DNA from: a virus
Lineage: Duplodnaviria; Caudoviricetes
Virus record (IMG/VR): IMGVR_UViG_3300045973_000630
Span: 1 to 56,769 of that record
Length of the DNA: 56,769 bases
Reading direction: 5' to 3' (one strand)
Shown here: one piece after another, positions 1,921 to 41,531 of the stretch
Numbering within the stretch: the stretch's first letter is position 1
Layout: the number at the start of each line of letters is the position of its first letter
The notes under the pieces: model-generated
Database searches by the model: none
What the model was told of the DNA's origin: nothing
Seen by the model: only the letters and a program-made list of their open reading frames with translations
Program-made: the position numbers and the translations under genes

Positions 1921-1921
1921 G

Positions 1922-2455: not shown

Positions 2456-2456
2456 A

Positions 2457-3312: not shown

Positions 3313-3333
3313 AGTAAACCTCCAAGCTTTTAA

Positions 3334-3867
3334 CTAGTGTAACTCGTCTTCGGATCCCGGTACACGAATTCTTTGAAATTCTATTTCTGCAGCTTCAAAT
3401 TGAGACTGTACATCAAAAGGTTTATTTGGATCCCGATCCCTACCAAGCACTTTCGAGTGTATAAAAGCCTGCATATCTTCGACAGTTGCTGAATTTAACC
3501 AAGTATCTAAAACATCTTGAGATACATACAAATTCTTTATCGCTACCGCATCTTCGCCTAGATAAGTTTCCCCTACAGAATCTTCAATATATGAATCATG
3601 GAGTTCAATTATTGGATGGATATCTTTTAAATTTTGGAACCAGATAATAACTTCAGGATGTGTCAAATCGATATGAAAACTTATCACAATAGATTGTGAT
3701 TCTTGACTTGGGAAGATTCCGAAGAACAATTTAAAGAGCGGCAGTTTATCTTTATAAAAGACGTGAATGTTTCGATGTTCAACTTCAACATCTAATTTAT
3801 AGACATCTTTAAGTTTTCCTATTAAGTAAATATATTGGTCATACATTCTAATTACTATATTTGACAC
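3334..3867 (-). CDS. hypothetical protein
   Basis: 177-aa ORF starting just past the upstream stop. Confidence 0.7.
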   Translation of the reverse strand: MSNIVIRMYDQYIYLIGKLKDVYKLDVEVEHRNIHVFYKDKLPLFKLFFGIFPSQESQSIVISFHIDLTHPEVIIWFQNLKDIHPIIELHDSYIEDSVGETYLGEDAVAIKNLYVSQDVLDTWLNSATVEDMQAFIHSKVLGRDRDPNKPFDVQSQFEAAEIEFQRIRVPGSEDELH

Positions 3868-3868
3868 T

Positions 3869-4120
3869 TTATACCTTAGGTTTCTTTAATACTTCAGTTT
3901 TAAACTCGGCAAGAAACGAGTCTCTCCAATTATCATATTCAGATTTATTACTTTTGGGAAGGTCTATTTTAACTTTTCGGGGGCGTATTGGTTTTACTAT
4001 ATTTTGAAGTTCTGCTTTTAACTGTTTGATTTCTTTAGTTTGTTTTAAAACTAAAGAACGTAGCTCTCTAATAGTTTCTTTATCCTTTTTCGAGTTTTCT
4101 TTTGTAGGGATTTTACTCAT
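3869..4120 (-). CDS. hypothetical basic protein
   Basis: ORF with GGGAG upstream. Confidence 0.65.
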   Translation of the reverse strand: MSKIPTKENSKKDKETIRELRSLVLKQTKEIKQLKAELQNIVKPIRPRKVKIDLPKSNKSEYDNWRDSFLAEFKTEVLKKPKV

Positions 4121-4236
4121 GTAATTTTACTCCCTTTTTTCATATTATCTATAGCCCATAACGGTTGTAAATTTGTATAATGACATGCTTTTAGGTCTTT
4201 AGAATACTGATGTAGTCCTTTTTGACATGTTTTCAT
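4117..4236 (-). pseudogene. internally deleted HNH-type homing endonuclease remnant (39 aa)
   Basis: MKTCQKGLHQYSKDLKACHYTNLQPLWAIDNMKKGSKIT. The first 16 aa equal those of ORF 41672. HYTNLQPLWxxDNxxKG is the C-terminal end of an HNH endonuclease family. Confidence 0.7.
4189..4236 (-). repeat. 48-bp repeat, inverted copy of 41672-41719
   Basis: 46/48 identical. Both differences are synonymous (GGA/GGG and GAC/GAT). Confidence 0.9.
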
Positions 4237-4238
4237 AC

Positions 4239-5699
4239 TTAAAATCTCAGATCTTTAATTTTACAGTTAAAATTTCTAATATAAATTTCTAGTCGGTTCT
4301 CTAGATGTCTGGCTAAATAATTAGTCCCCTCAAAAAAGAAATCATGCAAGTAAGCAATTGATTTTCCTTCAAACTTTCGAATAGCCCGCCCGGCATTTTG
4401 GACACATAGTATTTCTGATTTTCCCCCTACACAATTGATTAAATGATCAGTGGACTTAATATTAATGCCCTCCCCGATGACGGAAGATCCGATAAGAATT
4501 CGTACTAATTTTTCGTTAAATTCGTTAATTGTATTATTTATTAGTTCTTTTGAGTCATCTCCATTAATATATGAGCAGATTACTCCATGTGTAGTCAAAT
4601 ATTCTGAGATTACAAGTCCAACTTTATCCTTCTGTGAAACTAAGATTAAAACTTGATTATCTAATTCAACATTTTCAATTATTTCCAATATTTTATTTAA
4701 AACCGCGGGATTTCCAGAATAACTCTCTTCATATTCTTTTTGATACTTTGTAATAGGTCTTCCTGGAATTTGATGAACTAGTACTTCAAGTGGAGTTAAA
4801 TACCCTTCTTGAGTAGCTTTCCAAGCTGGGTACTCATATAATATATTAGAGGCTACTCCCCATAGAGCTAGTATGTCGGCTCCTTGACGTAAATATGTTC
4901 CAGAAAACGAAAATCGATAATAAATATGATCAAGATCTGGTAGTAGTGTTAGATAAGATTCCGCGGAAGAATGGTGTGCCTCATCAATAAATAAAGCTTC
5001 CATTTGGAGTGCAAATTTTTGAAATTCTCCAGATTTTTGTAAAGACGCTAGGGACTGAACTGTTATAATATTTATTGCTTTTGGTCGTTTATTTAGTCTA
5101 ATTTTCTTTGCATCTAAAATTTCTACATTTGTAGATCCAAACCATTCTTCGAAATCTGAGTATAATTGTAAACTCAAACCTCTTGACGGAACTATAATTA
5201 AGTTAGTTACCGCAAGTTCTTTAATTAAATATGCTAAAATACAGGTTTTCCCGGAACCGACACAAGAAGAGAAAACACCCCGACCGGCCTCGAGGCCTAG
5301 TCTAATCATTTCCTTTTGATAGTATCTAGGTTCAAAAGGTTTGTTATTCCACCTTAAAATTTGAGAGGACGAAGGAATCTCTCGTCGGTCCTGTACCTCA
5401 AACGGGGTACAAACTTCTTCTAAAGTTGCTTTAACAATGTTTAAAAGCCCAGTAGGAAACTTATTATCTTTGATTAAACATACGTATTCAGTTTTTTCTA
5501 AGTAAGCAATTCGAGCTTTCGCTATATTGTAACCCTTTAAGTTATTGTAACGCTTAGCATTTTGCATACGATAAAAGCAGGCCGCTTTTTCTGCATCGAT
5601 ATCATTTCGATAAGTAAGGACTTCCGTTAGAAGATCTTTAGCTTCTTTAGGTATATTCCCAGAAATGGTTGTAAATGAATTACTAACAATTAGTTGCAT
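4239..5699 (-). CDS. superfamily 2 DNA helicase (UvsW/ResIII-like)
   Basis: PRYYQ, GSGKT, DEAHH, SGT, GEGINI and QNAGRAIR motifs. Confidence 0.92.
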   Translation of the reverse strand: MQLIVSNSFTTISGNIPKEAKDLLTEVLTYRNDIDAEKAACFYRMQNAKRYNNLKGYNIAKARIAYLEKTEYVCLIKDNKFPTGLLNIVKATLEEVCTPFEVQDRREIPSSSQILRWNNKPFEPRYYQKEMIRLGLEAGRGVFSSCVGSGKTCILAYLIKELAVTNLIIVPSRGLSLQLYSDFEEWFGSTNVEILDAKKIRLNKRPKAINIITVQSLASLQKSGEFQKFALQMEALFIDEAHHSSAESYLTLLPDLDHIYYRFSFSGTYLRQGADILALWGVASNILYEYPAWKATQEGYLTPLEVLVHQIPGRPITKYQKEYEESYSGNPAVLNKILEIIENVELDNQVLILVSQKDKVGLVISEYLTTHGVICSYINGDDSKELINNTINEFNEKLVRILIGSSVIGEGINIKSTDHLINCVGGKSEILCVQNAGRAIRKFEGKSIAYLHDFFFEGTNYLARHLENRLEIYIRNFNCKIKDLRF

Positions 5700-6676: not shown

Positions 6677-9277
6677 ATGTCAAAACGAATTATTACTCGC
6701 GAACAACTAATAGATCCCAAACTAAAAGGCTTAACTGCAATCTCGAGCGTAGTTAAACGAACTTTAGGACCAGGTGGACTATTAATTTTAATCGAAAGAG
6801 TTGGGCAAACACTAGAAGGACTTCCGCTCGGGCCTAAGATCACAAAGGATGGGGTAAGTGTCGCGGAAGAGTGCGCATCTATAGATAAGGCTGAAGATAT
6901 TATAATTCAAGCGGTTAAGGGAATTTGCCGTAAAACAGTTAGTACTGCGGGTGATGGCCCCCAACCACTTTATAGTAAAGTTCTTACTCCAAAAGGTTTT
7001 ATAGAGATGCGAGATGTAAGGGTTGGGATGGTTATCTGTGGTACTAACGGAACAGTTCAAAAAGTTTTAGGGGTTTTCCCAAAAGGCCAAAAAGAGATCT
7101 ATGAAGTAGAGATTCAAAATAAAGGAATAGTAGAATGTTGCGAAGACCATGTTTGGTCAGTTACTAAAAACAGTAATGGGGGCGCGGATTCTGTAAAATC
7201 TGTAGCGGAACTTATAAAAGATTATAAAAAAGAAGGTATACAGTCTACAAAATATAATTATTATATACCAAAAACTCCGGTTTACTTTCAAGAGAATACT
7301 GCGGAAATGCCCTTAGACCCATATTTACTTGGAGTTTTGTTAGGAGATGGTTGTTTAAAAGATGGTTCTAGTATTGAGTTAGGACTGGGAGTTAAAAAAG
7401 AACATATATTACAAAAATTAAAACCACCTAAGGGAATTAATACAAATATCCAATTTGTAGAGTCTAGGAATTATTTTAGAGTTAAATTTTCAGGTATTTC
7501 GGAGACCGGAAAATCAATGAGAGATTATGTAGAGTCTTTAGGATTAAGAGACGCAGGTAGTTTTACTAAGTTTATTCCAAAATCCTATTTATACGCCTCT
7601 ATTGAAACTAGATCCCAAGTCCTACAAGGATTAATTGATACAGACGGATGCGTTAACGAGCGAGGCTTATTTGAGTTTAGTACAGGCTCAAAAGAACTAG
7701 CAACGGACCTTCGAGACCTAGTTTTGAGTTTAGGTAAGACAGTTCATATGTATCTCAGAGATCGAAGTAATGACAATGCATTCTCAAAGACTCCCATGTA
7801 TAGAATTGGAGAATTAAAAGGATTTATACATGGAGATAAAATAAAAGAAATTAAAGCTACTGGCAGGTTTACCGAAATGCAGTGCATTAAAGTAAGTAAT
7901 CCGGATAGTTTATACATAACGGATAATTATGTAGTTACACATAATACCACAACTGCTATGGTATTAGGTGAAGCAATTGTAAACGAGACCGAGCGCATCT
8001 TAAAAGAAGATACTAAGCTTAACCCGCAATTAGTTAGAGAATCTCTAGAAGAGGCATCTTTACAAGTAATTAAGAAACTTAAAAAGATAGCAATTAAAGT
8101 TAATAATAATAAAACTATCCAACAAGTAGCTACAATCTCTGCAAACGGAGACGAATCTATTGGAGATATTATCGCAGCAGCTTTTGCGCATGTAGGTGCC
8201 GAAGGGGTTGTAACTGTAGATGAGGGACATACTTCAAAAGTTACCTTAGATGTAGTTGACGGATATCAGTTCAATAGGGGCGCCGAGGGTCGTACCGCGT
8301 TTTTCAATAATAGAGACGCAACCCAATTTGAAGCGGAAGATGCAGCATTAATTATTTATGATGGAAAATTATATAACTATACTCAATTAATTCCAGCACT
8401 TAAGTTATTAGCGGGAGTCGGTGCGGATGAAAAAGCATCTCGAAAGATGCCGCCCACTGTAATTGTGGCAAATGAGTTCAGTCCAGAAGTACTTCAGTTC
8501 CTGTTAATTCAAAAAACAGAGATGGGGATGACCTTCTGTCCAATCACTGGACCGAATACTACCCATGTGAGATCTGGGTACTATGATGATTTAGCAGTTT
8601 ACTCAGGTGGAACTAGACTTGGAAATGGAGCACGCAACCTTGAGTCTATTGAAATGGATGATATTGGCCTCGTAAAAAGAGCATTATCTGATAAATATAA
8701 AACTACATTATATGATGGGCAAGGTTCTGAAGAATCAATTCTAGAAAGAGTAGACCAATTAAAAGCTGCAAAAGCACAAGCAGAGTCCCCATATGACGCA
8801 CAAATCTTAAATGATAGACTTGCATCACTAACTAATGGTATAGCTAAAATTGGAGTTGGTGGAACTACTGAAATGGAAATTAAAGAGAAGTATGACCGAA
8901 TAGAGGATGCATTAAACGCAGCACGCGCGGCAATCGAGGAGGGAGTTGTACCAGGCGGTGGAACTACTTTATTAAGAATTGCGTTAGAGATGCCTGAGAA
9001 GACAGTTGGTCAAAAGATCCTAAAAGTAGCATTACAAGCTCCATTCTTTCAAATCTTAGAGAATATTGGTATTTTTAAAGAAGAAGCTCTAGAAGTGTCT
9101 AAAACTCTCGTTAAGAGTAAAAGTAAGGTTTATGATGCAAGAACTAAGCAGATCAAAAATGCGATGACTGCGGGGATTATAGACCCAGTAAAGGTGACTA
9201 GAACTGCCTTGGAGAACGCGGTATCAATAGCAACCCTATTAAGTACTTGCGGTGGAGCAATTACTTACGAAAAATAA
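6677..9277 (+). CDS. groEL: chaperonin GroEL (Cpn60) precursor containing an intein
   Basis: TLGPGG, ITKDGVSVA, AGDG...TTTA, VATISANGD, EDALNAARAAIEEGVVPGGG and GIIDPVKVTRTALENA. It is 537 aa after removal of the intein. Confidence 0.96.
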   Translation: MSKRIITREQLIDPKLKGLTAISSVVKRTLGPGGLLILIERVGQTLEGLPLGPKITKDGVSVAEECASIDKAEDIIIQAVKGICRKTVSTAGDGPQPLYSKVLTPKGFIEMRDVRVGMVICGTNGTVQKVLGVFPKGQKEIYEVEIQNKGIVECCEDHVWSVTKNSNGGADSVKSVAELIKDYKKEGIQSTKYNYYIPKTPVYFQENTAEMPLDPYLLGVLLGDGCLKDGSSIELGLGVKKEHILQKLKPPKGINTNIQFVESRNYFRVKFSGISETGKSMRDYVESLGLRDAGSFTKFIPKSYLYASIETRSQVLQGLIDTDGCVNERGLFEFSTGSKELATDLRDLVLSLGKTVHMYLRDRSNDNAFSKTPMYRIGELKGFIHGDKIKEIKATGRFTEMQCIKVSNPDSLYITDNYVVTHNTTTAMVLGEAIVNETERILKEDTKLNPQLVRESLEEASLQVIKKLKKIAIKVNNNKTIQQVATISANGDESIGDIIAAAFAHVGAEGVVTVDEGHTSKVTLDVVDGYQFNRGAEGRTAFFNNRDATQFEAEDAALIIYDGKLYNYTQLIPALKLLAGVGADEKASRKMPPTVIVANEFSPEVLQFLLIQKTEMGMTFCPITGPNTTHVRSGYYDDLAVYSGGTRLGNGARNLESIEMDDIGLVKRALSDKYKTTLYDGQGSEESILERVDQLKAAKAQAESPYDAQILNDRLASLTNGIAKIGVGGTTEMEIKEKYDRIEDALNAARAAIEEGVVPGGGTTLLRIALEMPEKTVGQKILKVALQAPFFQILENIGIFKEEALEVSKTLVKSKSKVYDARTKQIKNAMTAGIIDPVKVTRTALENAVSIATLLSTCGGAITYEK
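6959..7945 (+). mobile_element. class 3 intein with LAGLIDADG homing endonuclease (329 aa)
   Basis: Starts PQPLYSKVLTP. Block B CEDHVW, endonuclease motifs LLGVLLGDG and LQGLIDTDG, block F MQCIKV, block G VTHN|T. Confidence 0.92.
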
Positions 9278-28108: not shown

Positions 28109-29938
28109 ATGGAAATTGGGCAACTTACCGATATTCAGTTTGCAGCAGTCTATGACAAACTGATTACCAAAATCAAATTAGATCCAATTGCTAATTTTAT
28201 TAGTGCCTCTGGATTTATGGATCTAGAGTTATTTCCTGCACAAGAAGTAATTTTAAAAGTTATTTTTGGTAAAACTTTAGATTATCATAAGAAAAAATCT
28301 ATAAATATGGAAGGTCGAACTACTACCGGCGGATTTAGACTTAGTTCTAAGCAAATGACAGAAGTTCAAATTTATGAGTTCATGACTGAATCAGAATACG
28401 ATCCAAAAAGTCTAAGAATGTTGAAGATTAATAAGGTTAATCTTATTTGTGGACGACGTTCGGGTAAGACATTATTAGCAGCAGTAATCGCAATTTATTG
28501 TGCAATTTCAACTAATTGGCAACCTTTTCTACGTAAAACTCCGTTTGCAACCGTATTGATTATGTCACATTCTAGAGAGTTCTCCGATGAAGTTTTAGAG
28601 GTCTTACGATCACTAATTGAAACATCCGAAATATTAAGACGGCTTATAAATAATGAAAAAAAGAATACATCCGCAACTATGAATCTTAAGATTCCTTGGT
28701 CCTCTAACGATAAAGTTCAATATTCAAGGGTACAGATTAAGGTTGCCGCAGCATCTAGTAAAACAACTCGAGGAGTTGCCGCATGTGCAGTACTTTGCGA
28801 TGAAATCAGTTACTGGAATAACGCAGAAACTATGACTGAAACAGATGAAAAGATTATGCGAGCAGTCCGTCCCGCGATGAAGCAGTTTGGGGACCATGCA
28901 ATGCTTATTAAGTTAAGTTCTCCAAGTTTAAAACAAGGTGTTCTTTACAGTGAGTACAAAGCACATAAAGATGGAACTTTACCAAAAAGTTACGCGGTGT
29001 TTAAAGCGCCGACTTGGGTTATGAACTCAATACTCCCAAGTAAAGAACTTGCAGAAGAATTTGAGTTAAATCCAGAAGCTTTTGATGTAGAGTATAGAGC
29101 TAATTTTACAGATTCATTAAGTTCATTTATAGTACCTGAATATATAGAAATGGGAGTCCTTAAACGAGTTCACATGCAACCCCCGGAAGCAGAGCTAGTG
29201 AGATACACTGCCGCAATTGATGCAGCCTATAAAGGAGATGCATTTACCTTTACCGTCTGTGGATATTCAAATGGAAGACTACGACAATATCTTATAAAAG
29301 GATGGCAAGGTACAAAGTTAAAACCCGTATCATCTTATGAAGTGGCTGAGTTTATTAGGAATATATGTAAAGTCTATAATATTGATGAAGTTGCTGCAGA
29401 TCAGTATTCATTTCAGCCACTTAGGGAGATTTTTGGAACTTACGGAGTATCCTTAAAAGAATACGTTTTTACCCCGGCATTTAAAAAGAAAATCTATTTT
29501 AACTTAAAAAAACTAGTACATTCTCAACAAATAGACCTACTAGATCATGAAACTCAAACTAGAGAACTTAAAGAACTAGTAGTTGAACAAGGACAATCTG
29601 GGTTAATCAAGATAAGCCATCCAGTTGGTGGAACTGATGATTATGCAGATTCTTTAGCAGTTTCCGCATTTCTAGCTACTCAAGAACTCGGACAAGGAAC
29701 TTTTGAGGTAGTAGATGGGGCAGCTGGGCAAACTTATGGGATATCTACCGATAACTCCGGTAGAGCATTTAGAGCTCCAAGTACAGATCAACTAGTTAAT
29801 TCTGGACATCTATCGGGGAATATTAATGATAATTCGGCTATGTTTATTAGACATCCTAAAACTGGTAAGGTAATGTTAAAAGTAGACTATGAAGAAGAGG
29901 GCGACGAAACTGACGAAAATAGTCAGTTTCTATTCTAA
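28109..29938 (+). CDS. terL: terminase large subunit
   Basis: FPAQ, GRRSGKT, VLCDE, SSP, EYRANF, IDAA and DDYADS. Confidence 0.93.
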   Translation: MEIGQLTDIQFAAVYDKLITKIKLDPIANFISASGFMDLELFPAQEVILKVIFGKTLDYHKKKSINMEGRTTTGGFRLSSKQMTEVQIYEFMTESEYDPKSLRMLKINKVNLICGRRSGKTLLAAVIAIYCAISTNWQPFLRKTPFATVLIMSHSREFSDEVLEVLRSLIETSEILRRLINNEKKNTSATMNLKIPWSSNDKVQYSRVQIKVAAASSKTTRGVAACAVLCDEISYWNNAETMTETDEKIMRAVRPAMKQFGDHAMLIKLSSPSLKQGVLYSEYKAHKDGTLPKSYAVFKAPTWVMNSILPSKELAEEFELNPEAFDVEYRANFTDSLSSFIVPEYIEMGVLKRVHMQPPEAELVRYTAAIDAAYKGDAFTFTVCGYSNGRLRQYLIKGWQGTKLKPVSSYEVAEFIRNICKVYNIDEVAADQYSFQPLREIFGTYGVSLKEYVFTPAFKKKIYFNLKKLVHSQQIDLLDHETQTRELKELVVEQGQSGLIKISHPVGGTDDYADSLAVSAFLATQELGQGTFEVVDGAAGQTYGISTDNSGRAFRAPSTDQLVNSGHLSGNINDNSAMFIRHPKTGKVMLKVDYEEEGDETDENSQFLF

Positions 29939-30003: not shown

Positions 30004-31992
30004 ATGTCTAATGAAATCAATAATAAGTCGCTTTTTCATAAGATAGTTGAAGCTGGAAACTCGTACCTAGACGCCCAAATTTTTAAATCGAAAAGCACAA
30101 TTCTCAATTCCAATGTTGAAGATGACTTCTTTTTCGGTAAAGCAGTTGTAGAAGATCCTAGTTACTCACTCCATTCTCAAGGGTTTCTAGATAAACCATA
30201 TAGAATTCAAGCCGCACATTTAAAGCAAATGTCCTACCAAGATACAGTAGTAGCCGGAGTTATCCAAACAAGACAAAATCAAATAGCAAATCATGCTATG
30301 CTGGTTAAATCTACGTATCAAAAAGGTTTTCAAATTAATCTTAGAGATGAAGACGCACTTCTAGAAAAAATAAAAGAAGAACTTAGAGCAGAATTAGAAG
30401 TAAAGAAATTAATGACTCAACCCGGAAATACTGAGCAAGGATCCCCAGAAGATAAAGCTGCAGCAGTACATAAGTCTTCTGAGTTTTCACAAAATGAAGA
30501 TATATCTACAGACGGAACTCAGCAAACCAACCCGGAAGATTCTGGTAAATCTGATGATGAAATTGAAGCATTTGATTTTGAGTTAGAACGAAAAGCTAAA
30601 GCCAAACTTGTTAAGCAATTCGCAGATGCACAAAAAGACGTAGAGCAATACATTCTAAATTGTGGTAAATCTGATAATAGACCTTTTGAAACAAAAAAAT
30701 GGAACTTTGGATCTGCGTTAAGAGCTTGGACCCGAGACACTTTGACTTATGATTTATATGCTACGGAAACAGTACCGGATCGAGCAGGACGTCCGCATCA
30801 TTGGTTCCCGATTGATAGTGGAACAGTTAAACGGGCTTCAAAAGATCTTAGAAAATTCAAAGATGTAGCTGAAAATTTTTATAATCTTGACATCTTATAC
30901 CCCGAGAAAACTAAAGAAGCTAGTGAACGACAAAAAGCAATTGATTTAGATGATACGCTATTAGAGCAGGATGCTTATAAATGGGTTCAAGTTATTAGAG
31001 GTAAAGTAGAGCGAGCATACACAGCAGATGAATTAGCAGTAGGTATTAGAAACGTAAATACTGACATTTTTAATAACGGATATGGTATTTCTGAATTAGA
31101 ATTACTATTATCGATGGTTACCGGGCATTTAAATGCAGAGTATTACAATCAGGCGTATTTTACTCAAGGATTCTCAGCTAAAGGTATTTTACACATCAAA
31201 TCTGCGTTAAATAGACGTAAAGTTGAAAGTGTTAGAACTGAATGGCACCATATGTTAAAAGGGTCTAAAAACTCGTTTCAGACTCCGATATTTGCAGGGG
31301 TTGAAGATGTTCAATGGATACCACTGACTCAAAATCATAATGATATAGGTTTTGAAGGTTGGATGCGGTATTTAATAACTATGATAGGGTGTATCTTCCA
31401 AATAGACCCAGCTGAAATGGGAATTCATCTTAAAGCAGAAGGTTCGGGTGGTGGACTTGGAAGTAAGGATAATACTCAAGAAAAAATAGACAACTCTAAA
31501 GACCGAGGGTTATTTCCATTATTAAATCACATTGAAACTTATATAAATGATCAGATTATAAAACCATTTGATTCTAGATTTATTCTTAAATTCACAGGAG
31601 TAAATGGCGAAAATCCAGTTCAAACACTAGCTCGACAAGAACGTGAAGTTAAATTCAAAAAGACAGTTAACGAAATTAGAGCAGAAGACGGACTTCCAAG
31701 TTTACCTGGAATGGATGACATTATATTAGATCCGCAATATATGGCTTGGTATAACCAGTATTCAACTAAAGCTTTAGAAAAACAGCAACAAGCTACTGAT
31801 TCTGCGATGCAATTGCAAGTTCAAGCACAAGATAGTGCACAACAACAAAATGCAGATCAAGGTCCGCAAATGACCCCAGAAGCTCAGCAAACTGATAATA
31901 ATATTTATGGAGATGGAGCTTTTACGCAAGAACCACCCATTAAAAAGAGCATGAAACCTCTAAAGATTGAAATCTATAAGATGGAGTCGTAA
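30004..31992 (+). CDS. portal protein
   Basis: IIQTR-like VIQTRQNQ, YGISELE, YFTQGFSAKGIL, FQIDPAEMG, GLFPLL and TVNEIRAEDGLP; SPO1/Twort-like portal. Confidence 0.93.
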   Translation: MSNEINNKSLFHKIVEAGNSYLDAQIFKSKSTILNSNVEDDFFFGKAVVEDPSYSLHSQGFLDKPYRIQAAHLKQMSYQDTVVAGVIQTRQNQIANHAMLVKSTYQKGFQINLRDEDALLEKIKEELRAELEVKKLMTQPGNTEQGSPEDKAAAVHKSSEFSQNEDISTDGTQQTNPEDSGKSDDEIEAFDFELERKAKAKLVKQFADAQKDVEQYILNCGKSDNRPFETKKWNFGSALRAWTRDTLTYDLYATETVPDRAGRPHHWFPIDSGTVKRASKDLRKFKDVAENFYNLDILYPEKTKEASERQKAIDLDDTLLEQDAYKWVQVIRGKVERAYTADELAVGIRNVNTDIFNNGYGISELELLLSMVTGHLNAEYYNQAYFTQGFSAKGILHIKSALNRRKVESVRTEWHHMLKGSKNSFQTPIFAGVEDVQWIPLTQNHNDIGFEGWMRYLITMIGCIFQIDPAEMGIHLKAEGSGGGLGSKDNTQEKIDNSKDRGLFPLLNHIETYINDQIIKPFDSRFILKFTGVNGENPVQTLARQEREVKFKKTVNEIRAEDGLPSLPGMDDIILDPQYMAWYNQYSTKALEKQQQATDSAMQLQVQAQDSAQQQNADQGPQMTPEAQQTDNNIYGDGAFTQEPPIKKSMKPLKIEIYKMES

Positions 31993-32232
31993 GTGGGAAA
32001 GATAAAAATCTTCGTAGAAGATAACGAATCCCAATTAGAAGTAGAAGAATCTTTACATAAAGCTCTAGAATTTCATAGTTCTGGAGATGTGCATGAAACT
32101 GAATTATTTGAAGATGCGGGAGCTCAAGATTTATTAAATAAACTTGAACTTTTGCATAAAAACTTATATATTCAAATACTTAATGAAATTTATGAAGCTT
32201 TAGACGAGGACTATACAAATGGTAACATCTAA
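31993..32232 (+). CDS. small acidic hypothetical protein
   Basis: GTG start after GGAG, between portal and the MuF-like gene. Confidence 0.65.
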   Translation: MGKIKIFVEDNESQLEVEESLHKALEFHSSGDVHETELFEDAGAQDLLNKLELLHKNLYIQILNEIYEALDEDYTNGNI

Positions 32233-34075
32233 AACAACTCTTGAAAAAATTAGAGAAATCATAAGCAAGAATTACGCTAAATTAGCAATTTCAGTATTAG
32301 GCAAATCTGTGTTAACGGATAAAGAACTTAAAGAGTTAAAAGCACAAGGTATTGATATCTCAAATACAGAATCTCTATTTGCATTATTATATAATCATGC
32401 ATTTATCAATCCACCAGAAGATACTCTAGGACCTAAATCTGTAGAAGATATGGAAAGTCAACAATCGGTAAGAGGGCTCCTCCCAGAAGGTTCTGCACAC
32501 GATTATGTTATAGAAAATCTAAATGATAAAACTAAACAACTTATAGACAAGCTTAAAGTAGATGTAATCTCTAGGGTTGAGGGATTAATACGAGAAAATA
32601 ATGATGTGTATCGAGTTGATGCGCTACAAAATTTAGATAGAACAGATTTGTTGGACGAATTGACTAAGGAGTCTAGCCTAGGAAAACTTAAGCAAAAATT
32701 AAGAGACACATCTAAAGAAGCAAACCGAGACTGGCTAAGAGTAGCAGTTACCGAAATGTCTAATGCTATCGGAATAGCGACCACAGATCGAATTGTGGTA
32801 GATAATAGATCTAAAAATTTAGAAGAGGTCTATGTATATAGAATTGCTCATAAAGATGGAAAAACATGTTTTACTGAGGCCGAAGAAGTATGTATGGCTA
32901 CTGGAGAATTGTGTCAGTTAAAGGATATTAAAGTCGGGGATTTATTACAGTCTGGGACTAGGAAAAAAGACAGAAATATAGGGTCGAAATCTAAAGTAGT
33001 TAGAATAGAGACAAAATTAGCAGAAGTGCTAGAATATCAATTTAGTGATGGAACGGTTATAAAGTGTACGTCTGATCATCCTATTTTAGTAAAATATAAA
33101 AAATTCTTAGGATTTATTCCGGTTTATATGTTAGAAACTACTAAGGTTAAATTTACAGTACCAAAGTACCAAGAGTTAACCACTGGAGAACGTGCAAGTA
33201 TAGGACGTATGCCAAGTTGGGCACTACAAATGGCCCCGAACTATACTGATTTCTTTTACTTTTGGCAAGACTATGGTCCTGAATTACTAGCAGATATTAG
33301 AAAAAGTAACTCATTTAAAGATTTACAAGAAAAATGGCAATTCCCGAAAATTGGTAATTGCCGAAATCTAGGCACGTTAGCCGCACTTTGCGGAGAGTCT
33401 TTTTCTAAATATACTAAAATTTCAAGTGCTAATAATAATTATAATGTAGAGTATCTAGAGCACCTTGCCACTAAATGTTTAGCCAAACTAGATTTAAGCG
33501 CGGAGGACCTAACTCGAGATCTAGGGTTGCACGGCTATAAATTTGTTATTAAAAAGTATAATATCAGTTTTCATATTCTAAAATTTTGGGTTATTCAAAA
33601 TTTAGGAAGTGCTTTTGATAAGAAGATTAGAAAATTAGGAAAAATTAGAGCACAACGAGCCGGTCAAACTAGTATTGCAAATACTCCCGGACTTCGCGAA
33701 AAACTAAATAATGAGGCCAGGACTAGACTAATAAGAAATTGTAAATCTACATCAAAACCTCAACGCGTGTTGTTTAATACTTTAAAATTAACATATCCAG
33801 CTATACAGTTAGAGGTCCCGATATTAGAAGCTTTTCGAGCAGATATTTTATTGAATAATATAATTATAGAATTTGATGGAAGTGGGCACTGGCTATTTGG
33901 AAAAGGTAGTAAAGCGCGAGATGAAGCTAGGGATAGACTTTGTACCCGGTATGGGTATTCTGTAATTAGAATTAAATCCCCAAAAGATAAGCAACCACCA
34001 ATTGAGAGTTTAACTAAGATACTAGAAATAATCAAACCTGGAGAATATAAGGAGATACACTGTGATAGTTTCTAA
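32219..34075 (+). CDS. MuF-like minor head protein N-half + split intein IntN + Vsr/DUF559-like endonuclease
   Basis: RDWLRVAVTE...DGKT|CFTEAEEV...DIKVGD...CTSDHPIL, then C-terminal FRADI...IEFDGSGH...RD...GYSVIRI. Confidence 0.82.
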   Translation: MVTSKTTLEKIREIISKNYAKLAISVLGKSVLTDKELKELKAQGIDISNTESLFALLYNHAFINPPEDTLGPKSVEDMESQQSVRGLLPEGSAHDYVIENLNDKTKQLIDKLKVDVISRVEGLIRENNDVYRVDALQNLDRTDLLDELTKESSLGKLKQKLRDTSKEANRDWLRVAVTEMSNAIGIATTDRIVVDNRSKNLEEVYVYRIAHKDGKTCFTEAEEVCMATGELCQLKDIKVGDLLQSGTRKKDRNIGSKSKVVRIETKLAEVLEYQFSDGTVIKCTSDHPILVKYKKFLGFIPVYMLETTKVKFTVPKYQELTTGERASIGRMPSWALQMAPNYTDFFYFWQDYGPELLADIRKSNSFKDLQEKWQFPKIGNCRNLGTLAALCGESFSKYTKISSANNNYNVEYLEHLATKCLAKLDLSAEDLTRDLGLHGYKFVIKKYNISFHILKFWVIQNLGSAFDKKIRKLGKIRAQRAGQTSIANTPGLREKLNNEARTRLIRNCKSTSKPQRVLFNTLKLTYPAIQLEVPILEAFRADILLNNIIIEFDGSGHWLFGKGSKARDEARDRLCTRYGYSVIRIKSPKDKQPPIESLTKILEIIKPGEYKEIHCDSF

Positions 34076-34169
34076 GAAATCATTAGGAGTACAGAATATC
34101 GTAGAGTTAGAACTAGATCAAAATTCTAGCAAAACTTATATAAATAAAGACGGAATTATCTCGCACAAT
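32867..34169 (+). mobile_element. naturally split intein with embedded endonuclease (IntN from 32867; IntC 34062-34169)
   Basis: Cys1 and block B TxDH lie in the first ORF. Blocks F/G ending ISHN|C lie in the second ORF, in another frame. Confidence 0.82.
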
Positions 34170-34430
34170 TGCAGATGGTGTTCCGAATTTTATGTTGATA
34201 ACGATGGAAGTCCTAAGCTTTATAAGTTAACTTCATTATTAGATAACGGGTCTAACTACGGTAAAAAACGAGATACTTGGCAAGCCGTTATTGGTGCCAC
34301 CCATCCGAATGAGCGATGTTCTGGTATTTTAGAATTAAAACCCGGGTTTATGCTTAAGTCTGATGGGACCAGTACATATATCGGAATGGCTAAATGGCCT
34401 GGATATATTTTGAATAAAGTTCAAAAATAG
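34062..34430 (+). CDS. split intein IntC (36 aa) + MuF-like head protein C-half
   Basis: TAAGGAG-7nt-GTG. MIVSKKSLGVQNIVELE...GIISHN|CRWC...HPNERC. Confidence 0.82.
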   Translation: MIVSKKSLGVQNIVELELDQNSSKTYINKDGIISHNCRWCSEFYVDNDGSPKLYKLTSLLDNGSNYGKKRDTWQAVIGATHPNERCSGILELKPGFMLKSDGTSTYIGMAKWPGYILNKVQK

Positions 34431-34476
34431 TATACAAAATCAAAAGCAATAGATACTATTCGAAAGAGGTATCTAT
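34431..34476 (+). promoter_or_regulatory. promoter plus RBS-overlapping hairpin
   Basis: TATACA-N17-TACTAT. Stem ATAGATAC/GTATCTAT overlaps GAGGT. Confidence 0.6.
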
Positions 34477-35010
34477 ATGCAATCTATCGATTCTCAAATT
34501 AAGACGCTTTTACTTAAAAAGAAGAAAATTGATTACATCAATTACTTGTTGGATCTCATTAAAAATGATACTAAATGTATTGATTTTACTGAAGTTAAAC
34601 AAGAAGTTATGTCTCAAATTGAACCATTTTTCGCCGAAGTTATTGCTTCAATTGAAACAGGTACGGATATTGCTAAATCAGTTTCAAATAGTTTTTCAAA
34701 TAAAGAGGTCGAAGTACTACAAAATTTAGTACAAAGAACTTTAGCTAAACAATCAAATCCAGCACCGCAAACTGAAACTACTCAAAAACCAATACAACCA
34801 ACTAGAAATTTACCGGAGTTATCTCAAGCAGATAAGCTTAGTTTTGCGCTAGCTAATAGACACTTTGCAAATAAACGAGTACAAATTATAAATGATCAAA
34901 ACGTACAAATTAATGGTGTATGCGTTGGATTAGATGCTCCGAATGTATTAGTTCGTACAGATTCTGGACCGACTATTCAAGTTCCATTAGAAAAAATAGT
35001 TATTTCGTAA
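34477..35010 (+). CDS. hypothetical protein (C-terminal SH3/Sm-like beta domain possible)
   Basis: ORF with ribosome binding site. C-terminal KRVQI...GVCVGLDAPNVLVRTDSG. Confidence 0.7.
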   Translation: MQSIDSQIKTLLLKKKKIDYINYLLDLIKNDTKCIDFTEVKQEVMSQIEPFFAEVIASIETGTDIAKSVSNSFSNKEVEVLQNLVQRTLAKQSNPAPQTETTQKPIQPTRNLPELSQADKLSFALANRHFANKRVQIINDQNVQINGVCVGLDAPNVLVRTDSGPTIQVPLEKIVIS

Positions 35011-36207: not shown

Positions 36208-36813
36208 GTGTCACGTAAATTTAATAAAGAAGATATTGAACGATTTCATGATTACGGGATCTATATACCAAATAGAGTAATTTATATGGGATCTGAATCT
36301 TATGATTTAGACTCAAATGAATCGGGCACTAATGGGTTAATGGCAGAACGTATCTTAAAGAACTTAACGATGTTAGATACACTCTCCCAAGAGCCGATCA
36401 CAATTATATTAAATAATATAGGTGGAGATTTTTACCATGGATTAGCTATTTTTGATGCAATCCAGACTTGTAAATCGCCAGTAACTATAAAGGTTTTTGG
36501 ACATGCTATGTCTATGGGCTCAGTAATATTGCAAGCAGCAGATAGAAGAGTTATGGCAGCAAATGCTAAGCAAATGATACATTATGGTACTTGCGGAATG
36601 AACTCGCACGCTAAGACATTTCAAAAGTGGGCCAAAGAATATGAACGACTAGATAGTTGGATGGAAGACTTATATTTTAAAAGAATCTTAGAAAAACATC
36701 CAGATTTTCCAATATCTAAGTTGAAAAAGATGTTAGATCATGACTCGTTCTTAACCGCACAAGAATCCGTAGATCTAGGATTGGCTGACGAACTTTTAAA
36801 AGTAGGAGAATAA
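36208..36813 (+). CDS. clpP: ClpP-family serine protease
   Basis: RVIYM, ITIILNNIGG, GLAIFDAI, AMSMGS (Ser), MIH (His) and DSFLTAQESVDLGLAD. Confidence 0.9.
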   Translation: MSRKFNKEDIERFHDYGIYIPNRVIYMGSESYDLDSNESGTNGLMAERILKNLTMLDTLSQEPITIILNNIGGDFYHGLAIFDAIQTCKSPVTIKVFGHAMSMGSVILQAADRRVMAANAKQMIHYGTCGMNSHAKTFQKWAKEYERLDSWMEDLYFKRILEKHPDFPISKLKKMLDHDSFLTAQESVDLGLADELLKVGE

Positions 36814-36816
36814 CTA

Positions 36817-37575
36817 ATGTCATTAACTAAGATTTTTGAAGACATTTTAAATAAAGAACAACCTAAGTCTAGCAGTTTAGGTCAATTCAAAATTAAACCC
36901 TCAACATTAGGGTCTAAGTGTCTTCGTAAAGTCTATTATGTTTCAGCAGGTGTTTCTGAAGACTTTGAGTTTGACCTCAGCGGTAAGCGCCGAATGAAGC
37001 TAGGTGACTATGTTCATTCTATGCTTCATGACATTTATGATGAAGCAGGGATTCTTATAAAGTATATTAATCCGGATGGAACTACTAATTTAGATTGGAA
37101 AAACCCAACTAAAATTGATTATGAGTTTCCGTTATCTTCAGAAGACCTTTTTATCAAACGCGGGAAGATCGATGCGGTAATAGAGATTAATAATGAACTT
37201 TGGATTGGTGAGTATAAATCTATAAATATGAATGGATTTAGTAACTTAACCCAGGCTAAACCTGAGCATATAATCCAAGCAGTTGTTTATTTATATGTAT
37301 TTAATCAGATGTTAGCAAGTGGCGCATTTTCACATATAGAACAATTAGCTAAGTATAAAGCAGCAAAAGGTGTTAAATTTTTATATTTAAATAAAGATGA
37401 CACAGCATTAAAAGAGTTTACCCTAACTAATTGTGATGAAATCTTTGGTCAAATAGTAGAGAAAATAATGGTAATTAGACAAGCTTATGAAACCAAGCAA
37501 CTACCTGGAAAAACTCCTGACTTTTGTAAAACTTGTAATTATAGAACAAAATGTCAAAATAACTATAACATTTAG
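36817..37575 (+). CDS. Cas4-like PD-(D/E)XK exonuclease
   Basis: CLRK, GxxVH, GKID, EYKS, QxxxY and C-terminal CKTCNYRTKC. Confidence 0.85.
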   Translation: MSLTKIFEDILNKEQPKSSSLGQFKIKPSTLGSKCLRKVYYVSAGVSEDFEFDLSGKRRMKLGDYVHSMLHDIYDEAGILIKYINPDGTTNLDWKNPTKIDYEFPLSSEDLFIKRGKIDAVIEINNELWIGEYKSINMNGFSNLTQAKPEHIIQAVVYLYVFNQMLASGAFSHIEQLAKYKAAKGVKFLYLNKDDTALKEFTLTNCDEIFGQIVEKIMVIRQAYETKQLPGKTPDFCKTCNYRTKCQNNYNI

Positions 37576-37604
37576 TTTACTTAATGGAATATATAAGATA
37601 TAGT
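37576..37604 (+). promoter_or_regulatory. sigma70-like promoter
   Basis: TTTACT-N17-TATAGT. Confidence 0.6.
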
Positions 37605-37648
37605 CTAAGTATAGCCGTAACAACTCGGAATAATCTTTTAGGAATATA

Positions 37649-37993
37649 ATGGCTGACTCAAATAATAACTCATTCAAATGTAAAGAAGTATGCGATTGGA
37701 AGATAAATTCTCCAAAGTATCAAGATTGTATATGGAGTTATATAAGAGCTAGATCTGCAGCAGATGGTTCTATGAGAGAGCATTCACAAGCTGAAATTTC
37801 TAAAATGCTAGGTATTCCAAGTACTAAGGTAGCGTTAGCTATAAAAGAAGCAACTAAAGCATTCAAAAAAGCATTGAAAAAAGCAGATTTAGCCCAAGTT
37901 TTAAATAAAGATGTTAGTTATAATATAAACTTAGGTACGACTTCTTTAGAAGTTACACCCACTTTTGATAAACCGAGCAATAGTATAAAATAA
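37649..37993 (+). CDS. small sigma70 region-4-like HTH protein
   Basis: EHSQAEISKMLGIPSTKVALAIKEATKAFK, preceded by a Cys-containing N-terminus. Confidence 0.6.
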   Translation: MADSNNNSFKCKEVCDWKINSPKYQDCIWSYIRARSAADGSMREHSQAEISKMLGIPSTKVALAIKEATKAFKKALKKADLAQVLNKDVSYNINLGTTSLEVTPTFDKPSNSIK

Positions 37994-37995
37994 TT

Positions 37996-38850
37996 TTGGA
38001 TAAAATGAGTAGTATGACTAATGATTCTAATTTTAAATTTATAATTCCCGCTGAACTTGAGAAATCTGCCAATGGAGACTGGAAAGTCCGCGGATTAGCC
38101 TCTACTAATAATTTAGATAGACAAGGTGAAAGAATCCTTCAAGAAGGTCTAGATTTAACTCCGATTGATCAAAAACGCGGAGTTATAAACTATGATCATT
38201 TAAGCGGACCTGAAAATACTATAGGTTTGCTAGACGGATATACTCAAACAAATAAAGGCTTATATATAGAGGGAAGACTCTTTAAAAATCATACTAAAGC
38301 GAAAGCTATATATGAAATCATGAGTTCTTTAAATAAAGCCGACCATGGTCGAATGGGTATTTCAGTTGAGGGTAAGATAATTGAACGAGATCCGCTCAAT
38401 CCATCAGTAATCAAAAAGTGTCGAATTAATGCAGTAGCTTTGACACTTAATCCAGTAAATGTAGATACTTATGTCGATATTGTGAAATCTATGAATGCAA
38501 GTCAAACAGTAGAATTTAATTCAATAGAGCAAGCGCAAAACCTAGAAGTTAAGTCCGAAGAGCCGATGTTCACATCTACTCAAGTAGTTTCTATTATAGA
38601 AAAAGCATTAGCAATTACTACCGGAAATGCTTTGGCACCAAATACTAGAACTGGTGGAGATGCTTTAGGCCAAGAAGAATTAGATTCTAAGAAAAAGCTT
38701 AAAAATAAACCAAAAGAGCTTTTTAAGTCTCAAATGCTAGAACTATTAGATCAACTTCAAAGTTTGCACCCAGACTGCTCTAGATCGGAGCTTTGGGCTG
38801 CAATCTCAGAGCGTTTATCAACAAAATTTCCACAAATACACAATAATTAA
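37996..38850 (+). CDS. prohead protease (true start may be ATG 38005 or 38014)
   Basis: GLAST...DRQGE, NYDH, GLYIEG, GISVEG and ALTLNPVN. Confidence 0.9.
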   Translation: MDKMSSMTNDSNFKFIIPAELEKSANGDWKVRGLASTNNLDRQGERILQEGLDLTPIDQKRGVINYDHLSGPENTIGLLDGYTQTNKGLYIEGRLFKNHTKAKAIYEIMSSLNKADHGRMGISVEGKIIERDPLNPSVIKKCRINAVALTLNPVNVDTYVDIVKSMNASQTVEFNSIEQAQNLEVKSEEPMFTSTQVVSIIEKALAITTGNALAPNTRTGGDALGQEELDSKKKLKNKPKELFKSQMLELLDQLQSLHPDCSRSELWAAISERLSTKFPQIHNN

Positions 38851-40112: not shown

Positions 40113-41531
40113 ATGTCACAAATTATTAATCAGATCGCTAATGATCCGTCAATTACTGGCTTTGGATCAATGGGTGCGCAACAAGTTGATGCTTTACAAA
40201 AAGCATTAGCAATTACACAAAACTACGGCACAACTGCTCCAGGTTCACTTTCAGGTGGATCCGCTCTTGCAGTTGAAGATCTTGACCGTACTCTTAAACT
40301 AGTTACACATGGTTTAGAGCATTTGAAACTTTGGAAAGATATCGTAAAAGAGAAAGTAAACCAAACAGTTTCAGAATATAACGTTCAAAATTCATATGGT
40401 CAAGAAGTTAGTCCATTTTTCAATATGGGTGGAACTCCGGTATCAACTACGGCTAATTATGATCGTGAATTTATCCAAGTAAAATATCTTGGAACTCAAG
40501 GACAAGTACAACATAACTTGACCCTTATTCAAGCAGCGCACGGTCCAGTTATTGCTCGCGAAGTTAAAAACAAAACAGTTGAACTTTTAGCTAGAAACGA
40601 AAGAGCAATGTTCGAAGCTGATAGCTCAATCAACTCTCTTGAGTATGATGGTATCGAAGCTCAAATCGCTACTAAAGAAGCTCAATCACAATACAAATCA
40701 ACTGCTTTCGCAGGTTTTGATGCAGTTGGATCTTCTGACTCTGTGATTATCGATGTACGCGGAAAATTCAATGATGAAGTAGCTGAAAGAATGGCGTTAA
40801 CTAACGTTAATAACTTCGGTATGGCTATGGATTGTTATTTAGGTACTGATGTTCATTCAGTATTTTCTAGAGATTATTATTTAAAACAAAGAACTCTTCC
40901 TGGAGAAACTTTGACTTCTGGTAACAGAGTTAAAGAACATACTGGTTCGATTGATTACCGATTTAAACCAAGTTTGTTTAATAGACCAAGAATTAGTCCA
41001 CTTCCGCAATCAGTGTCAGCTTCAGCAGTTCCTACAATTGCTAATATGCTTTCGCCAGCGGACGCAAGTTCACAATTTGCTTCAGGAGATGCTGGAACTT
41101 ATGGATATAAAGTAAGTTTAGTATTTTCTGATGGTGAAACTGCTCCGTCAACTGAAGTTTCTGGCGCAGTTGCTGCGGGAGATAAAGTTACTATGGAAAT
41201 TTCTTTCTCAGGAAGTCCATTGTATGCTAATATCTTCAGATCTGCTAAAGATGCTGCTGGTTCTAACTGGAAATTTATCGGTCGTATTGCATTACTTGGT
41301 TCTGGAGTTGCAGTAACTATCGATATGAATGCAGTTATTCCAGGTGCTGCAAAAGCATTCTTGTTAATGCATGATTCTGATGCATTATGTTTTAAACAAT
41401 TAGGTTCTATGATTAAATATGATTTGGCAGTTACCGATACCAGCTATAAGTGGCTACAACTTATGTATGGAACTCCATTGATAGCCGCGTCTAGAAAACA
41501 TTGTATAGCTAAAAATTTAACTTTAGCATAA
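40113..41531 (+). CDS. major capsid protein
   Basis: LQKAL...GSALAVEDLDRTLK...LWKDI...EYN...VKYLG...LEYDG; SPO1/Twort-like capsid, downstream of protease and scaffold. Confidence 0.92.
   Translation: MSQIINQIANDPSITGFGSMGAQQVDALQKALAITQNYGTTAPGSLSGGSALAVEDLDRTLKLVTHGLEHLKLWKDIVKEKVNQTVSEYNVQNSYGQEVSPFFNMGGTPVSTTANYDREFIQVKYLGTQGQVQHNLTLIQAAHGPVIAREVKNKTVELLARNERAMFEADSSINSLEYDGIEAQIATKEAQSQYKSTAFAGFDAVGSSDSVIIDVRGKFNDEVAERMALTNVNNFGMAMDCYLGTDVHSVFSRDYYLKQRTLPGETLTSGNRVKEHTGSIDYRFKPSLFNRPRISPLPQSVSASAVPTIANMLSPADASSQFASGDAGTYGYKVSLVFSDGETAPSTEVSGAVAAGDKVTMEISFSGSPLYANIFRSAKDAAGSNWKFIGRIALLGSGVAVTIDMNAVIPGAAKAFLLMHDSDALCFKQLGSMIKYDLAVTDTSYKWLQLMYGTPLIAASRKHCIAKNLTLA

Follow-up and report, generated by a model that had tools for sequence, protein, structure and literature searches.

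The window analysed here is the whole of IMG/VR virus record IMGVR_UViG_3300045973_000630 (56,769 bases; estimated completeness, 49%), and its plus strand carries, from 32219 to 34430, a gene for a probable phage head protein that is interrupted by a putative naturally split intein with an endonuclease fused to its N-terminal half. The locus consists of two open reading frames (ORFs). ORF1 (32219..34075; 618 amino acids, aa) is a single uninterrupted frame for the N-extein, the N-terminal intein half (IntN) and a nuclease. The N-extein (216 aa; 32219..32866) ends in ...HKDGKT and is followed directly by IntN, which starts with CFTEAE... at residue 217 (Cys1 codon, 32867-32869) and contains CTSDHP at residues 283-288 (block B T-S-D-H, 33068-33079); we place IntN at approximately residues 217-320 (32867..33178), the 3′ boundary being approximate. 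The remainder of ORF1 comprises a poorly conserved, presumed DNA-binding middle region in frame with IntN (residues ~321-488; 33179..33682) and a Vsr/DUF559/EDxHD-like nuclease domain (residues 489-618; 33683..34075, including the stop codon at 34073-34075). The C-terminal region contains ...IIIEFDGSGHW...RDEARDRL...GYSVIRIKS, and the codons of E551, D553 and H557 are located at 33869-33871, 33875-33877 and 33887-33889, respectively. ORF2 (34062..34430; 122 aa) begins with a GTG codon and overlaps the last 14 nucleotides (nt) of ORF1 (34062..34075) in a different frame. Its own Shine-Dalgarno (SD) sequence, TAAGGAG (34048..34054), lies 7 nt upstream of the GTG. Reading of the sequence showed that the ORF2 frame is closed by a stop codon at 34029-34031 and open from 34032, so that no longer frame is possible. 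ORF2 encodes a 36-aa C-terminal intein half (IntC; 34062..34169), read as MIVSKKSLGVQNIVELELDQNSSKTYINKDGIISHN and ending in ...GIISHN, and an 86-aa C-extein (34170..34430, with the stop codon at 34428-34430) that starts with the +1 Cys (34170-34172) of CRWCSEFY... and contains HPNERC. All coordinates and strings given for these elements in an earlier sequence-only reading were exact upon re-reading.

The insertion point was defined by comparison with intein-less homologues. A search with the N-extein returned 170 proteins at E ≤ 0.001, and the counts given here cover the 120 that were listed. Homologues without an intein were exactly 302 aa long in 109 of these 120 and 300-307 aa long in all of them; the 216-aa N-extein and the 86-aa C-extein likewise add up to 302 aa. 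The N-extein aligned over 100% of its length, at no more than 70% identity, with residues 1-216 of the 302-aa proteins, and the C-extein aligned with residues 217-302, which puts the insertion precisely after T216 and before the first Cys of CxxC. The homologues read ...KDAKT-CKWCRRFY..., and the window reads ...KDGKT followed by CFTEAE... in ORF1 and ...ISHN followed by CRWCSEFY... in ORF2. At the DNA level, alignment of four intein-less alleles with both window junctions revealed a clean insertion between ...AAGACA and TGCAAATGGTGT..., and one intein-less locus (L015) was syntenic: the 302-aa gene is preceded there by a portal gene and an 80-aa ORF and followed by a 187-aa ORF, the order being that of the window. 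The site, the homologue lengths and the alignment all agree with the proposal in the sequence-only reading that an intein-type insertion would, upon removal, restore a 302-aa protein. The signature attributed to that protein, D-x-x-T-C-x-x-C...HPxxRC, stood in its first part, as D-x-x-[T/L/A]-C-x-x-C was uninterrupted at the insertion site in all 120 listed homologues; its second part is not universal, as 78 of the 120 have HPxxRC, 35 have HPxxRT and 7 have neither. In addition, an intein-less gene at L026:2998-3876 has lost the first Cys (...TDPTCRKLY...) and has HPNSRTS, and two intein-less proteins (P0058 and P0096) have HPNTRTS instead of HPxxRC. If the Cys motif binds a metal, these sequences, together with the 35 listed HPxxRT proteins, suggest that it is not essential in all lineages.

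Residues 217-618 of ORF1 were searched against 1.84 billion representative proteins, and 85 matches were obtained at E ≤ 0.001. In an alignment of 19 family members, D213, C217, H287 and P288 were invariant, and block B had the form [T/S]xxH, with T in 16 sequences and S in 3. The profile made from this alignment matched the gp41-1 intein (6qaz, E 4e-6) best among PDB entries, followed by a bacterial intein-like (BIL) domain (2lwy, 2e-5) and by hedgehog and DnaE inteins. On the IntC side, G31, H35, N36 and C37 were invariant in 5 aligned IntC ORFs, and the ending His-Asn, followed by the Cys of CxxC, was found in 7 of 7 IntC ORFs (the 5 aligned ones and those of L006 and L008). The IntC of a related locus, L003, matched the C-terminal end of PF14890 (Intein_splicing) with an E value of 1.1e-6. 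An insertion absent from homologues, a block A nucleophile, block B, block G with a +1 Cys, and profile similarity are sequence features of a class 1 intein, and all of these were found. A BIL domain was considered as an alternative identity and rejected, because the conserved His-Asn, the +1 Cys and the precise excision frame favour an intein. We therefore consider it very likely that the element is a naturally split class 1 intein. A scan of the window with the family hidden Markov model detected neither IntN nor the endonuclease nor IntC a second time.

In the window and in each of the 19 aligned proteins, a single frame runs from IntN into the nuclease with no intervening stop codon, as the sequence-only reading had held in describing the endonuclease as fused to IntN. 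Production of a separate endonuclease from an internal start was considered and dropped; the possible start residues Met335 and Met344 are not conserved. Residues E551, D553, G554, G556, H557, D568, R571 and D572 were nearly invariant in the 19-sequence alignment, E551, D553, H557, D568 and D572 being the putative catalytic residues among them, and E, D, D and R were invariant in 7 aligned nuclease domains. DUF559 scored above the Pfam cut-off in 6 of the 10 relatives scanned, and the family profile matched the DUF559-type protein 3hrl (E 1.4e-3). An AlphaFold2 (AF2) model of the nuclease domain, made with a 7-sequence alignment (pLDDT 76.9), had as its best PDB match 3r3p, the catalytic domain of I-Bth0305I (E 0.024, prob 0.99, TMt 0.67), followed by the Vsr structures 1cw0 and 1vsr. 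In a phmmer search of the PDB the domain retrieved nothing relevant, the similarity to I-Bth0305I being below detection. The middle region is characterized in the family by the motifs D-x-x-W/F-x-F/Y-W and N-x-x-N-x-x-Y; helix-turn-helix (HTH) matches were found in this region of relatives (P0137, HTH_7, 29.6 bits vs a cut-off of 23.8), and a Pfam scan of the window's own middle region gave no HTH match. Ten mid-sized nuclease-only matches were free-standing DUF7487/DUF559 proteins and not IntN fusions. Free-standing relatives of the nuclease, 365-473 aa in length with DUF7487 ahead of the DUF559-like domain, include P0153, P0155, P0159, P0168, P0171, P0183, P0186, P0191 and P0199. The intein-fused endonucleases showed no match to DUF7487, and their presumed DNA-binding part would thus be of a different kind from that of the free-standing relatives.

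The break between ORF1 and ORF2 was then assessed within the window's own sequence and among relatives. A 38.6-kb Logan contig, assembled separately from a pond metagenome (run X1), was identical to the window over 31900-34600 at a depth of 17 and contained no indel, including at the ORF1/ORF2 junction, where the sequence-only reading had asked for an indel error to be excluded. Among the 85 matches, 20 (including the window's own; P0121, P0122, P0125, P0128-P0142, P0154 and P0169) had an N-extein, the D-x-x-x-C junction, block B and the nuclease motif without an IntC, and these 20 proteins ended 64-77 residues past the ExDG motif. Three others (P0126, P0127 and P0149) had the junction and block B without the nuclease motif, one (P0177) was contiguous, and the remaining 61 were other Hint-domain or nuclease-only proteins. 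A contiguous form of about 740 aa with a full endonuclease was not present among the 85. A search of IMG/VR with the 19-sequence alignment yielded 13 loci, of which six (L009-L014) matched IntN residues only and were left out of the layout count, and one (L005) was cut by the contig end. In all six complete loci (L002, L003, L004, L006, L007 and L008), a downstream ORF for IntC and the C-extein overlapped the nuclease tail, with an IntC of about 35 residues ending in [V/I]x[H]N and followed by CxxC...HPxxRC. Less sensitive approaches recovered little: single-protein and two-sequence queries of viral contigs gave no relatives, a word-based search for ORF2-sized relatives gave only ORF2 itself and a truncated intein-less protein, and a search for longer relatives with the N-extein gave only the window's own protein and P0122.

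The manner in which the two ORFs overlap varied among the loci. The overlap was 14 nt in the window, 13 nt in L002, L004, L007 and L008, 8 nt in L003 and 20 or 53 nt in L006, and the frame offset was +1 in the window, L003 and L006 and −1 in L002, L004, L007 and L008. A purine-rich, SD-like run was located upstream of every IntC ORF start, in the window and in the six related loci. In the four loci with a 13-nt overlap, a conserved Trp codon near the end of the nuclease (EVWRF, DTWRV, DIWQN and QKWVA) is formed by the last two bases of the start codon (ATG or GTG) and the following G, indicating that the two frames are tightly coupled through a codon shared with the start. The identical separate contig, the 20 matches with the same layout and the six complete loci establish that the split, claimed from the window alone in the sequence-only reading, is genuine, and the split layout is, as judged from these sequences, a real and stable way of encoding the head protein.

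Three other explanations for this arrangement were weighed. The one that survives best is that a selfish insert broke the gene and that no splicing takes place, the halves being held together non-covalently by IntN and IntC, or the function of the gene being dispensable. Non-covalent assembly of the product of an endonuclease-fractured phage gene has been described (PMC3045599; for the Aeh1 nrdA case see also PMC2677866), splicing at the present locus is a prediction made from sequence, and the endonuclease has decayed in P0149, P0154, P0126 and P0127. Against this, Cys1 (19/19), the block B His (19/19) and His-Asn-Cys (7/7) have been kept even though the N-exteins of the family are only 9-49% identical, which is more than would be expected of a mere dimerization handle; both exteins are conserved and full-length, and a form with a decayed endonuclease (L008) retains IntN, IntC and the overlap. 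We consider this explanation unlikely.

A second possibility is programmed ribosomal frameshifting near the end of ORF1, which would generate a contiguous, cis-splicing precursor and make the split only apparent. Programmed frameshifts are used in phage structural modules, the two frames overlap here, and the ORF2 frame is open from 34032. However, the mechanism would require a +1 shift in the window, L003 and L006 and a −1 shift in L002, L004, L007 and L008, so that no single conserved mechanism fits. Moreover, no slippery heptamer was seen in the 41-nt stretch concerned, the IntC ORF has its own SD-like run and ATG or GTG start at every locus, and similar overlaps between a free-standing endonuclease and the start of IntC occur in the loci of Dassa 2009 (PMC2677866), for which the available text of that paper invokes no frameshift. 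This explanation is very improbable. Less probable still is an assembly or sequencing frameshift in a gene that is truly one frame, with a contiguous, cis-splicing intein and a nested endonuclease: although a one-base indel anywhere in 34032-34072 would fuse the frames, the contigs examined come from one run that may be the window's own source, and a contiguous relative (P0177) exists, such an error is excluded by the recurrence of the break with varying overlaps (8, 13, 20 or 53 nt) and opposite frame offsets, and is further opposed by the separate contig (depth 17, no indel), by the stop just past the nuclease in 20 of the 85 matches (the window's included) and in all six complete IMG/VR loci, by the strong SD sequence and start codon of ORF2, and by the lack of any contiguous form of about 740 aa among the 85.

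Several observations nevertheless weigh against a trans-splicing intein with a fused, functional endonuclease, and they are gathered here. When the window was examined on its own, the Pfam matches to Hint (E 0.016) and Intein_splicing (E 0.022) were weak, as was the match to the Ssp DnaE intein (1zd7, E 0.058) over EVLEY..DG.VI..TSDH; ORF2 had no match in Pfam, PHROGs or, with phmmer, the PDB, and ORF1 had none in PHROGs. A complex of IntN (ORF1 205-325) and IntC (ORF2 1-46) predicted with alignments speaks for binding of the halves, but only to a limited degree: it scored 0.41, with 0.05 for the best of three controls, and was graded as 'weak support'. Of 80 solved complexes, 58 attained the mark that it passed, as did 2 of 110 mismatched pairs, and scores of 0.60 or less were obtained by only 7 of those 80 solved complexes and by both mismatches that passed. 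Contact agreement between the runs was at least 88% and partner pLDDT at least 59, and the pass may reflect likeness only, because split-intein complexes have already been solved. Trans-splicing of the halves is a prediction from sequence features. For the nuclease, the window's DUF559 match (residues 547-604, E 0.0011) fell just under the cut-off (19.3 vs 20.6 bits), and the structural match to 3r3p is not significant on its own, its weight lying in its agreement with the sequence evidence. The only public run with the locus is X1, which may be the source sample, so that the separate contig represents an independent assembly and not an independent sample. Finally, an endonuclease of about 300 residues attached to IntN could impede the pairing of the two intein halves, and we know of no characterized split intein with such a load on IntN.

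The arrangement that best accommodates these data is a split intein whose two parts would act as follows. ORF1 and ORF2 are probably co-transcribed in a late head operon. ORF1 would be translated as one chain, consisting of the N-extein, IntN and a Vsr/EDxHD-type homing endonuclease, and ORF2 would be initiated independently from its own SD sequence and a GTG that lies within the 14 nt at the end of ORF1, to give IntC and the C-extein. IntN and IntC are expected to associate into a HINT fold. In this fold, protein trans-splicing by Cys217 (Cys1) and the T-x-x-H block on the IntN side, and by the His-Asn that ends IntC together with the +1 Cys on the other, would join ...DGKT to CRWC... and produce the 302-aa protein. 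The released IntN-endonuclease, with IntC bound to it, would be equivalent to a bifunctional intein of full size whose backbone is nicked once, where the endonuclease meets IntC. The endonuclease may cut intein-less alleles of co-infecting relatives near the junction of ...AAGACA and TGCAAATGGTGT..., after which repair would copy the 1.3-kb insert (homing). More generally, we tentatively propose, at a level of confidence somewhat short of even, that the locus represents a widespread and undescribed class in which the endonuclease is covalently attached to IntN and the only break precedes IntC, in which trans-splicing rebuilds a head protein and releases a nicked bifunctional intein, and which may be a stable end state.

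All 120 listed matches in the window's extein clade (57-70% identity among those listed) were without an intein, and the nearest intein-bearing relative, P0122, had only 49% identity in the N-extein and 31-37% in the insert. Intein-less close kin together with so distant an intein-bearing relative indicate a sporadic distribution. In a search of metagenome contigs with a smaller alignment, 13 loci matched N-extein residues 1-217 only, and the two that were read (L015 and L026) were both intein-less. The N-exteins of intein-bearing proteins have diverged to 9-49% identity. Among 18 full-length members (truncated P0127 was left out), identities in the N-extein and in the insert were correlated (Spearman 0.44 over 153 non-independent pairs), and at long range the insert was more conserved than the extein (approximately 0.24 vs 0.17); both results fit one origin and a long association. 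Forms with reduced endonucleases were also found. In L008 (P0154 is its ORF1) the endonuclease middle has been lost and the split kept; in P0149 most of the endonuclease has been lost, the tail and the split being kept; and in P0177 (666 aa) a single frame encodes IntN, what is left of an endonuclease whose nuclease domain is missing, and IntC (PF14890, E 2.8e-7). The contiguous counterpart and the intein-less alleles with which the sequence-only reading had suggested comparison thus both exist, the latter giving the clean insertion described above. That reading had also regarded the locus as an intermediate stage in intein splitting. A half-fused form is indeed implied by step IIIa of the model in Dassa 2009 (PMC2677866), in which the flanks of the endonuclease are lost and the domain comes to be in frame, so that this part of the idea stands; transience does not, because recurrence in 20 of the 85 matches and the divergence of the N-exteins make the layout look long-lived.

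The gene interrupted by the insert belongs to an uncultured tailed phage of roughly 115 kb, and its product is probably a MuF/SPP1-gp7-like head-morphogenesis protein. The gene follows the portal gene (30004..31992, plus strand; PF04860, E 3.6e-13; phrog_11117, portal, 8.6e-41), with a 79-aa ORF lying between the end of the portal gene (31992) and ORF1; SPP1 gene 7 likewise follows the portal gene, gene 6. The AF2 extein model, made of P0001 (pLDDT 78.4), was compared with the BFVD structures, and the top three phage proteins (E 1.5e-10 to 1.7e-9) were annotated 'Hint domain-containing' or 'Intein splicing domain' at ranks 1 and 3, with rank 2 unnamed; 'Phage head morphogenesis domain' first appeared at E 1.7e-3 (prob 1.00, TMq 0.42), and many 'Minor capsid protein' or 'MuF-like' rows followed at E 0.008-0.3. 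In the ESM Atlas, 24 of 30 named neighbours were clusters in which 49-52% of the members carry PF04233 (score 0.95). Direct comparisons stayed below threshold or found nothing. PF04233 did not match the window's halves, its best rows in relatives (P0119, E 0.057; P0133, E 0.027) reached 14.6-15.6 bits vs a cut-off of 29.6, and the rows for the C-exteins of L003 (E 0.054) and L006 (E 0.22), at the end of the profile, were collinear with it and far under the cut-off; SPP1 gp7 itself scores 114 bits. Furthermore, hhalign of the extein profile with SPP1 gp7 found nothing (probability 0.1), Foldseek found no match to the extein model in the PDB, and a PHROGs search with the intein-less homologues gave chance-level rows only. 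We conclude from the fold matches, the language-model neighbours and the gene position that the 302-aa protein is probably MuF-like, as the sequence-only reading had proposed, and that it is not a member of the family at the Pfam level.

The nearest known systems are the fractured genes of Dassa 2009 (PMC2677866), including gp41-1, NrdJ-1 and IMPDH-1, in which IntN is followed by a stop codon, 27-51 nt of non-coding sequence, a free-standing GIY-YIG or Vsr-like endonuclease, and IntC. The spacer often contains a hairpin, and in 15 loci the 3′ end of the endonuclease gene overlaps the start of IntC by 6-69 bp (PMC2677866). The interrupted genes encode enzymes of DNA synthesis, repair or packaging (PMC2677866), in agreement with the statement in the sequence-only reading that described fractured genes are mainly enzymes with a free-standing endonuclease. 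The present locus resembles this set in its phage origin, in having both ORFs on one strand at one locus, in the putative Vsr-like endonuclease between the halves and in the 3′ overlap (6-69 bp there, 14 nt here), and the best PDB match of the family IntN profile is the gp41-1 intein. It differs from them in that IntN is not terminated by a stop and spacer, IntN and the endonuclease forming one polypeptide, and in that the host is of the head-morphogenesis or minor-capsid type. In the available text of Dassa 2009 a half-fused locus is not reported, though the model predicts that the flanks of the endonuclease are lost (PMC2677866). Compared with canonical bifunctional inteins, the locus has the same order of N-terminal splicing region, endonuclease and C-terminal splicing region, and the associated products would form the same assembly. 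Canonical elements, however, are single cis-splicing chains with mostly LAGLIDADG or HNH enzymes (bioRxiv 10.1101/2025.01.02.630785), whereas here the chain is interrupted after the endonuclease, ahead of IntC, and the enzyme is probably Vsr/EDxHD-like.

Inteins in MuF or minor-capsid proteins have already been reported, as contiguous forms. Actinobacteriophage minor capsid inteins are contiguous, with antisense or out-of-frame endonucleases (bioRxiv 10.1101/2025.01.02.630785), and the same preprint names Dassa's split inteins as the only other elements from which Vsr-like (EDxHD) endonucleases were known. A contiguous intein with no recognizable endonuclease was noted in 2004 in the Mu-like prophage protein F of Methylococcus capsulatus (PMC517821). 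The present element is like these in its type of host protein and, like those of the preprint, is associated with a putative Vsr-like endonuclease; unlike it, they are contiguous, the Vsr-like endonucleases of the preprint are antisense, and no split form is described in the accessible parts of these sources. Searches of a library of open-access papers turned up no MuF or minor-capsid protein with an intein of the split kind and no fusion of IntN to an endonuclease. The cyanobacterial DnaE split intein (Ssp, Npu), whose IntC is about 36 aa long, shares with the present one the class 1 chemistry, Cys1 with a +1 Cys, and a similar block B region, but its halves are encoded at separate loci without an endonuclease, whereas here they are adjacent and IntN carries the endonuclease.

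With regard to the enzyme, the EDxHD family was first recognized in fractured genes, in the form of their Vsr-like endonucleases (PMC2677866, PMC3239194), and its homing endonuclease prototype is I-Bth0305I, a free-standing protein whose gene lies inside a group I intron, with D196, H213 and D222 among its residues (PMC3239194). The nuclease model and alignment suggest the same organization here, with a C-terminal Vsr-like catalytic domain, a longer presumed DNA-binding region ahead of it, and conserved acidic and His residues. Unlike I-Bth0305I, the present enzyme forms the C-terminal portion of a fusion with the N-extein and IntN.

The origin of intein-nested endonucleases and of split inteins is still argued from few arrangements. 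What had been missing is a half-fused form, in which the 5′ flank of the endonuclease has been lost and the 3′ break kept; the locus and its relatives provide it, and it appears common and long-lived. With the internal-deletion forms (L008/P0154 and P0149) and the re-fused, contiguous P0177, the whole cycle may be traceable in one host gene. Natural split inteins would also be extended from DNA-metabolism enzymes to a head-morphogenesis protein, and if the proposed class is real, the dosage and timing of the endonuclease would be tied to late structural-gene expression. Its members would further be split inteins that have diverged from one another, may be mutually orthogonal and accept a cargo of 300 residues on IntN. 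Such diverged pairs of IntN and IntC, with Cys at the +1 position, are candidate orthogonal trans-splicing tools, for which at least 19 further protein clusters and seven IntC sequences (including the window's) are available, and they make it possible to test directly whether splicing can be fast with a large domain on IntN.

In the surrounding region, the large terminase subunit gene (28109..29938) precedes the portal gene, and 3′ of the split gene lie genes for a head protease (36208..36813; phrog_94, 2.1e-35), a Cas4-like exonuclease (36817..37575; phrog_1706, 6.2e-27), a second protease-like protein (37996..38850; phrog_1028, 1.6e-46) and the major head protein (40113..41531). The head module at 36208-38850 thus has two head-maturation-protease-like genes, one on either side of the Cas4-like exonuclease gene. 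The G+C content of the insert (approximately 0.32-0.36) is no different from that of its flanks. The numbers of promoter-like (12 vs 12.1 expected) and terminator-like (2 vs 1.2) sites in 31800-34700 were at chance level, and no tRNA genes were found in the window. A look-up of public sequencing runs listed no RNA data set with the locus. Searches of the INPHARED phage records by blastn and tblastn gave no match to the locus or to the N-extein. The phage lineage is uncultured, with no close isolate in the collection, and related metagenome contigs measure about 114 kb. Among cultured phages, the best matches to the major head protein reach an identity of only about 30%; they come from the SPO1-like or SP-10-like phages of Bacillus, the DAC phages of Bacteroides, and many myoviruses of Staphylococcus and Enterococcus.

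Further inteins were encountered in the head genes of relatives. P0177 contains a second intein between HPH and CRC of its HPxCRC motif, so that both halves of the Cys/His signature are intein targets. Upstream of the split MuF-like gene of L008, at 47-4600 of an IMG/VR contig of 166,843 bases, lies a portal gene for 1517 aa with two LAGLIDADG-bearing inteins (PF14890, 9.2e-17, in 2 stretches; LAGLIDADG_3, 7e-18, in 2 stretches), making three inteins in two adjacent head genes. In L002, the ORF that follows the IntC-C-extein gene (6796-7656) starts with MSQV-CFTENE..., similar to CFTEAE, and matches LAGLIDADG_3 (E 1.1e-4), and it may represent another intein, or part of one, with which the next gene begins.

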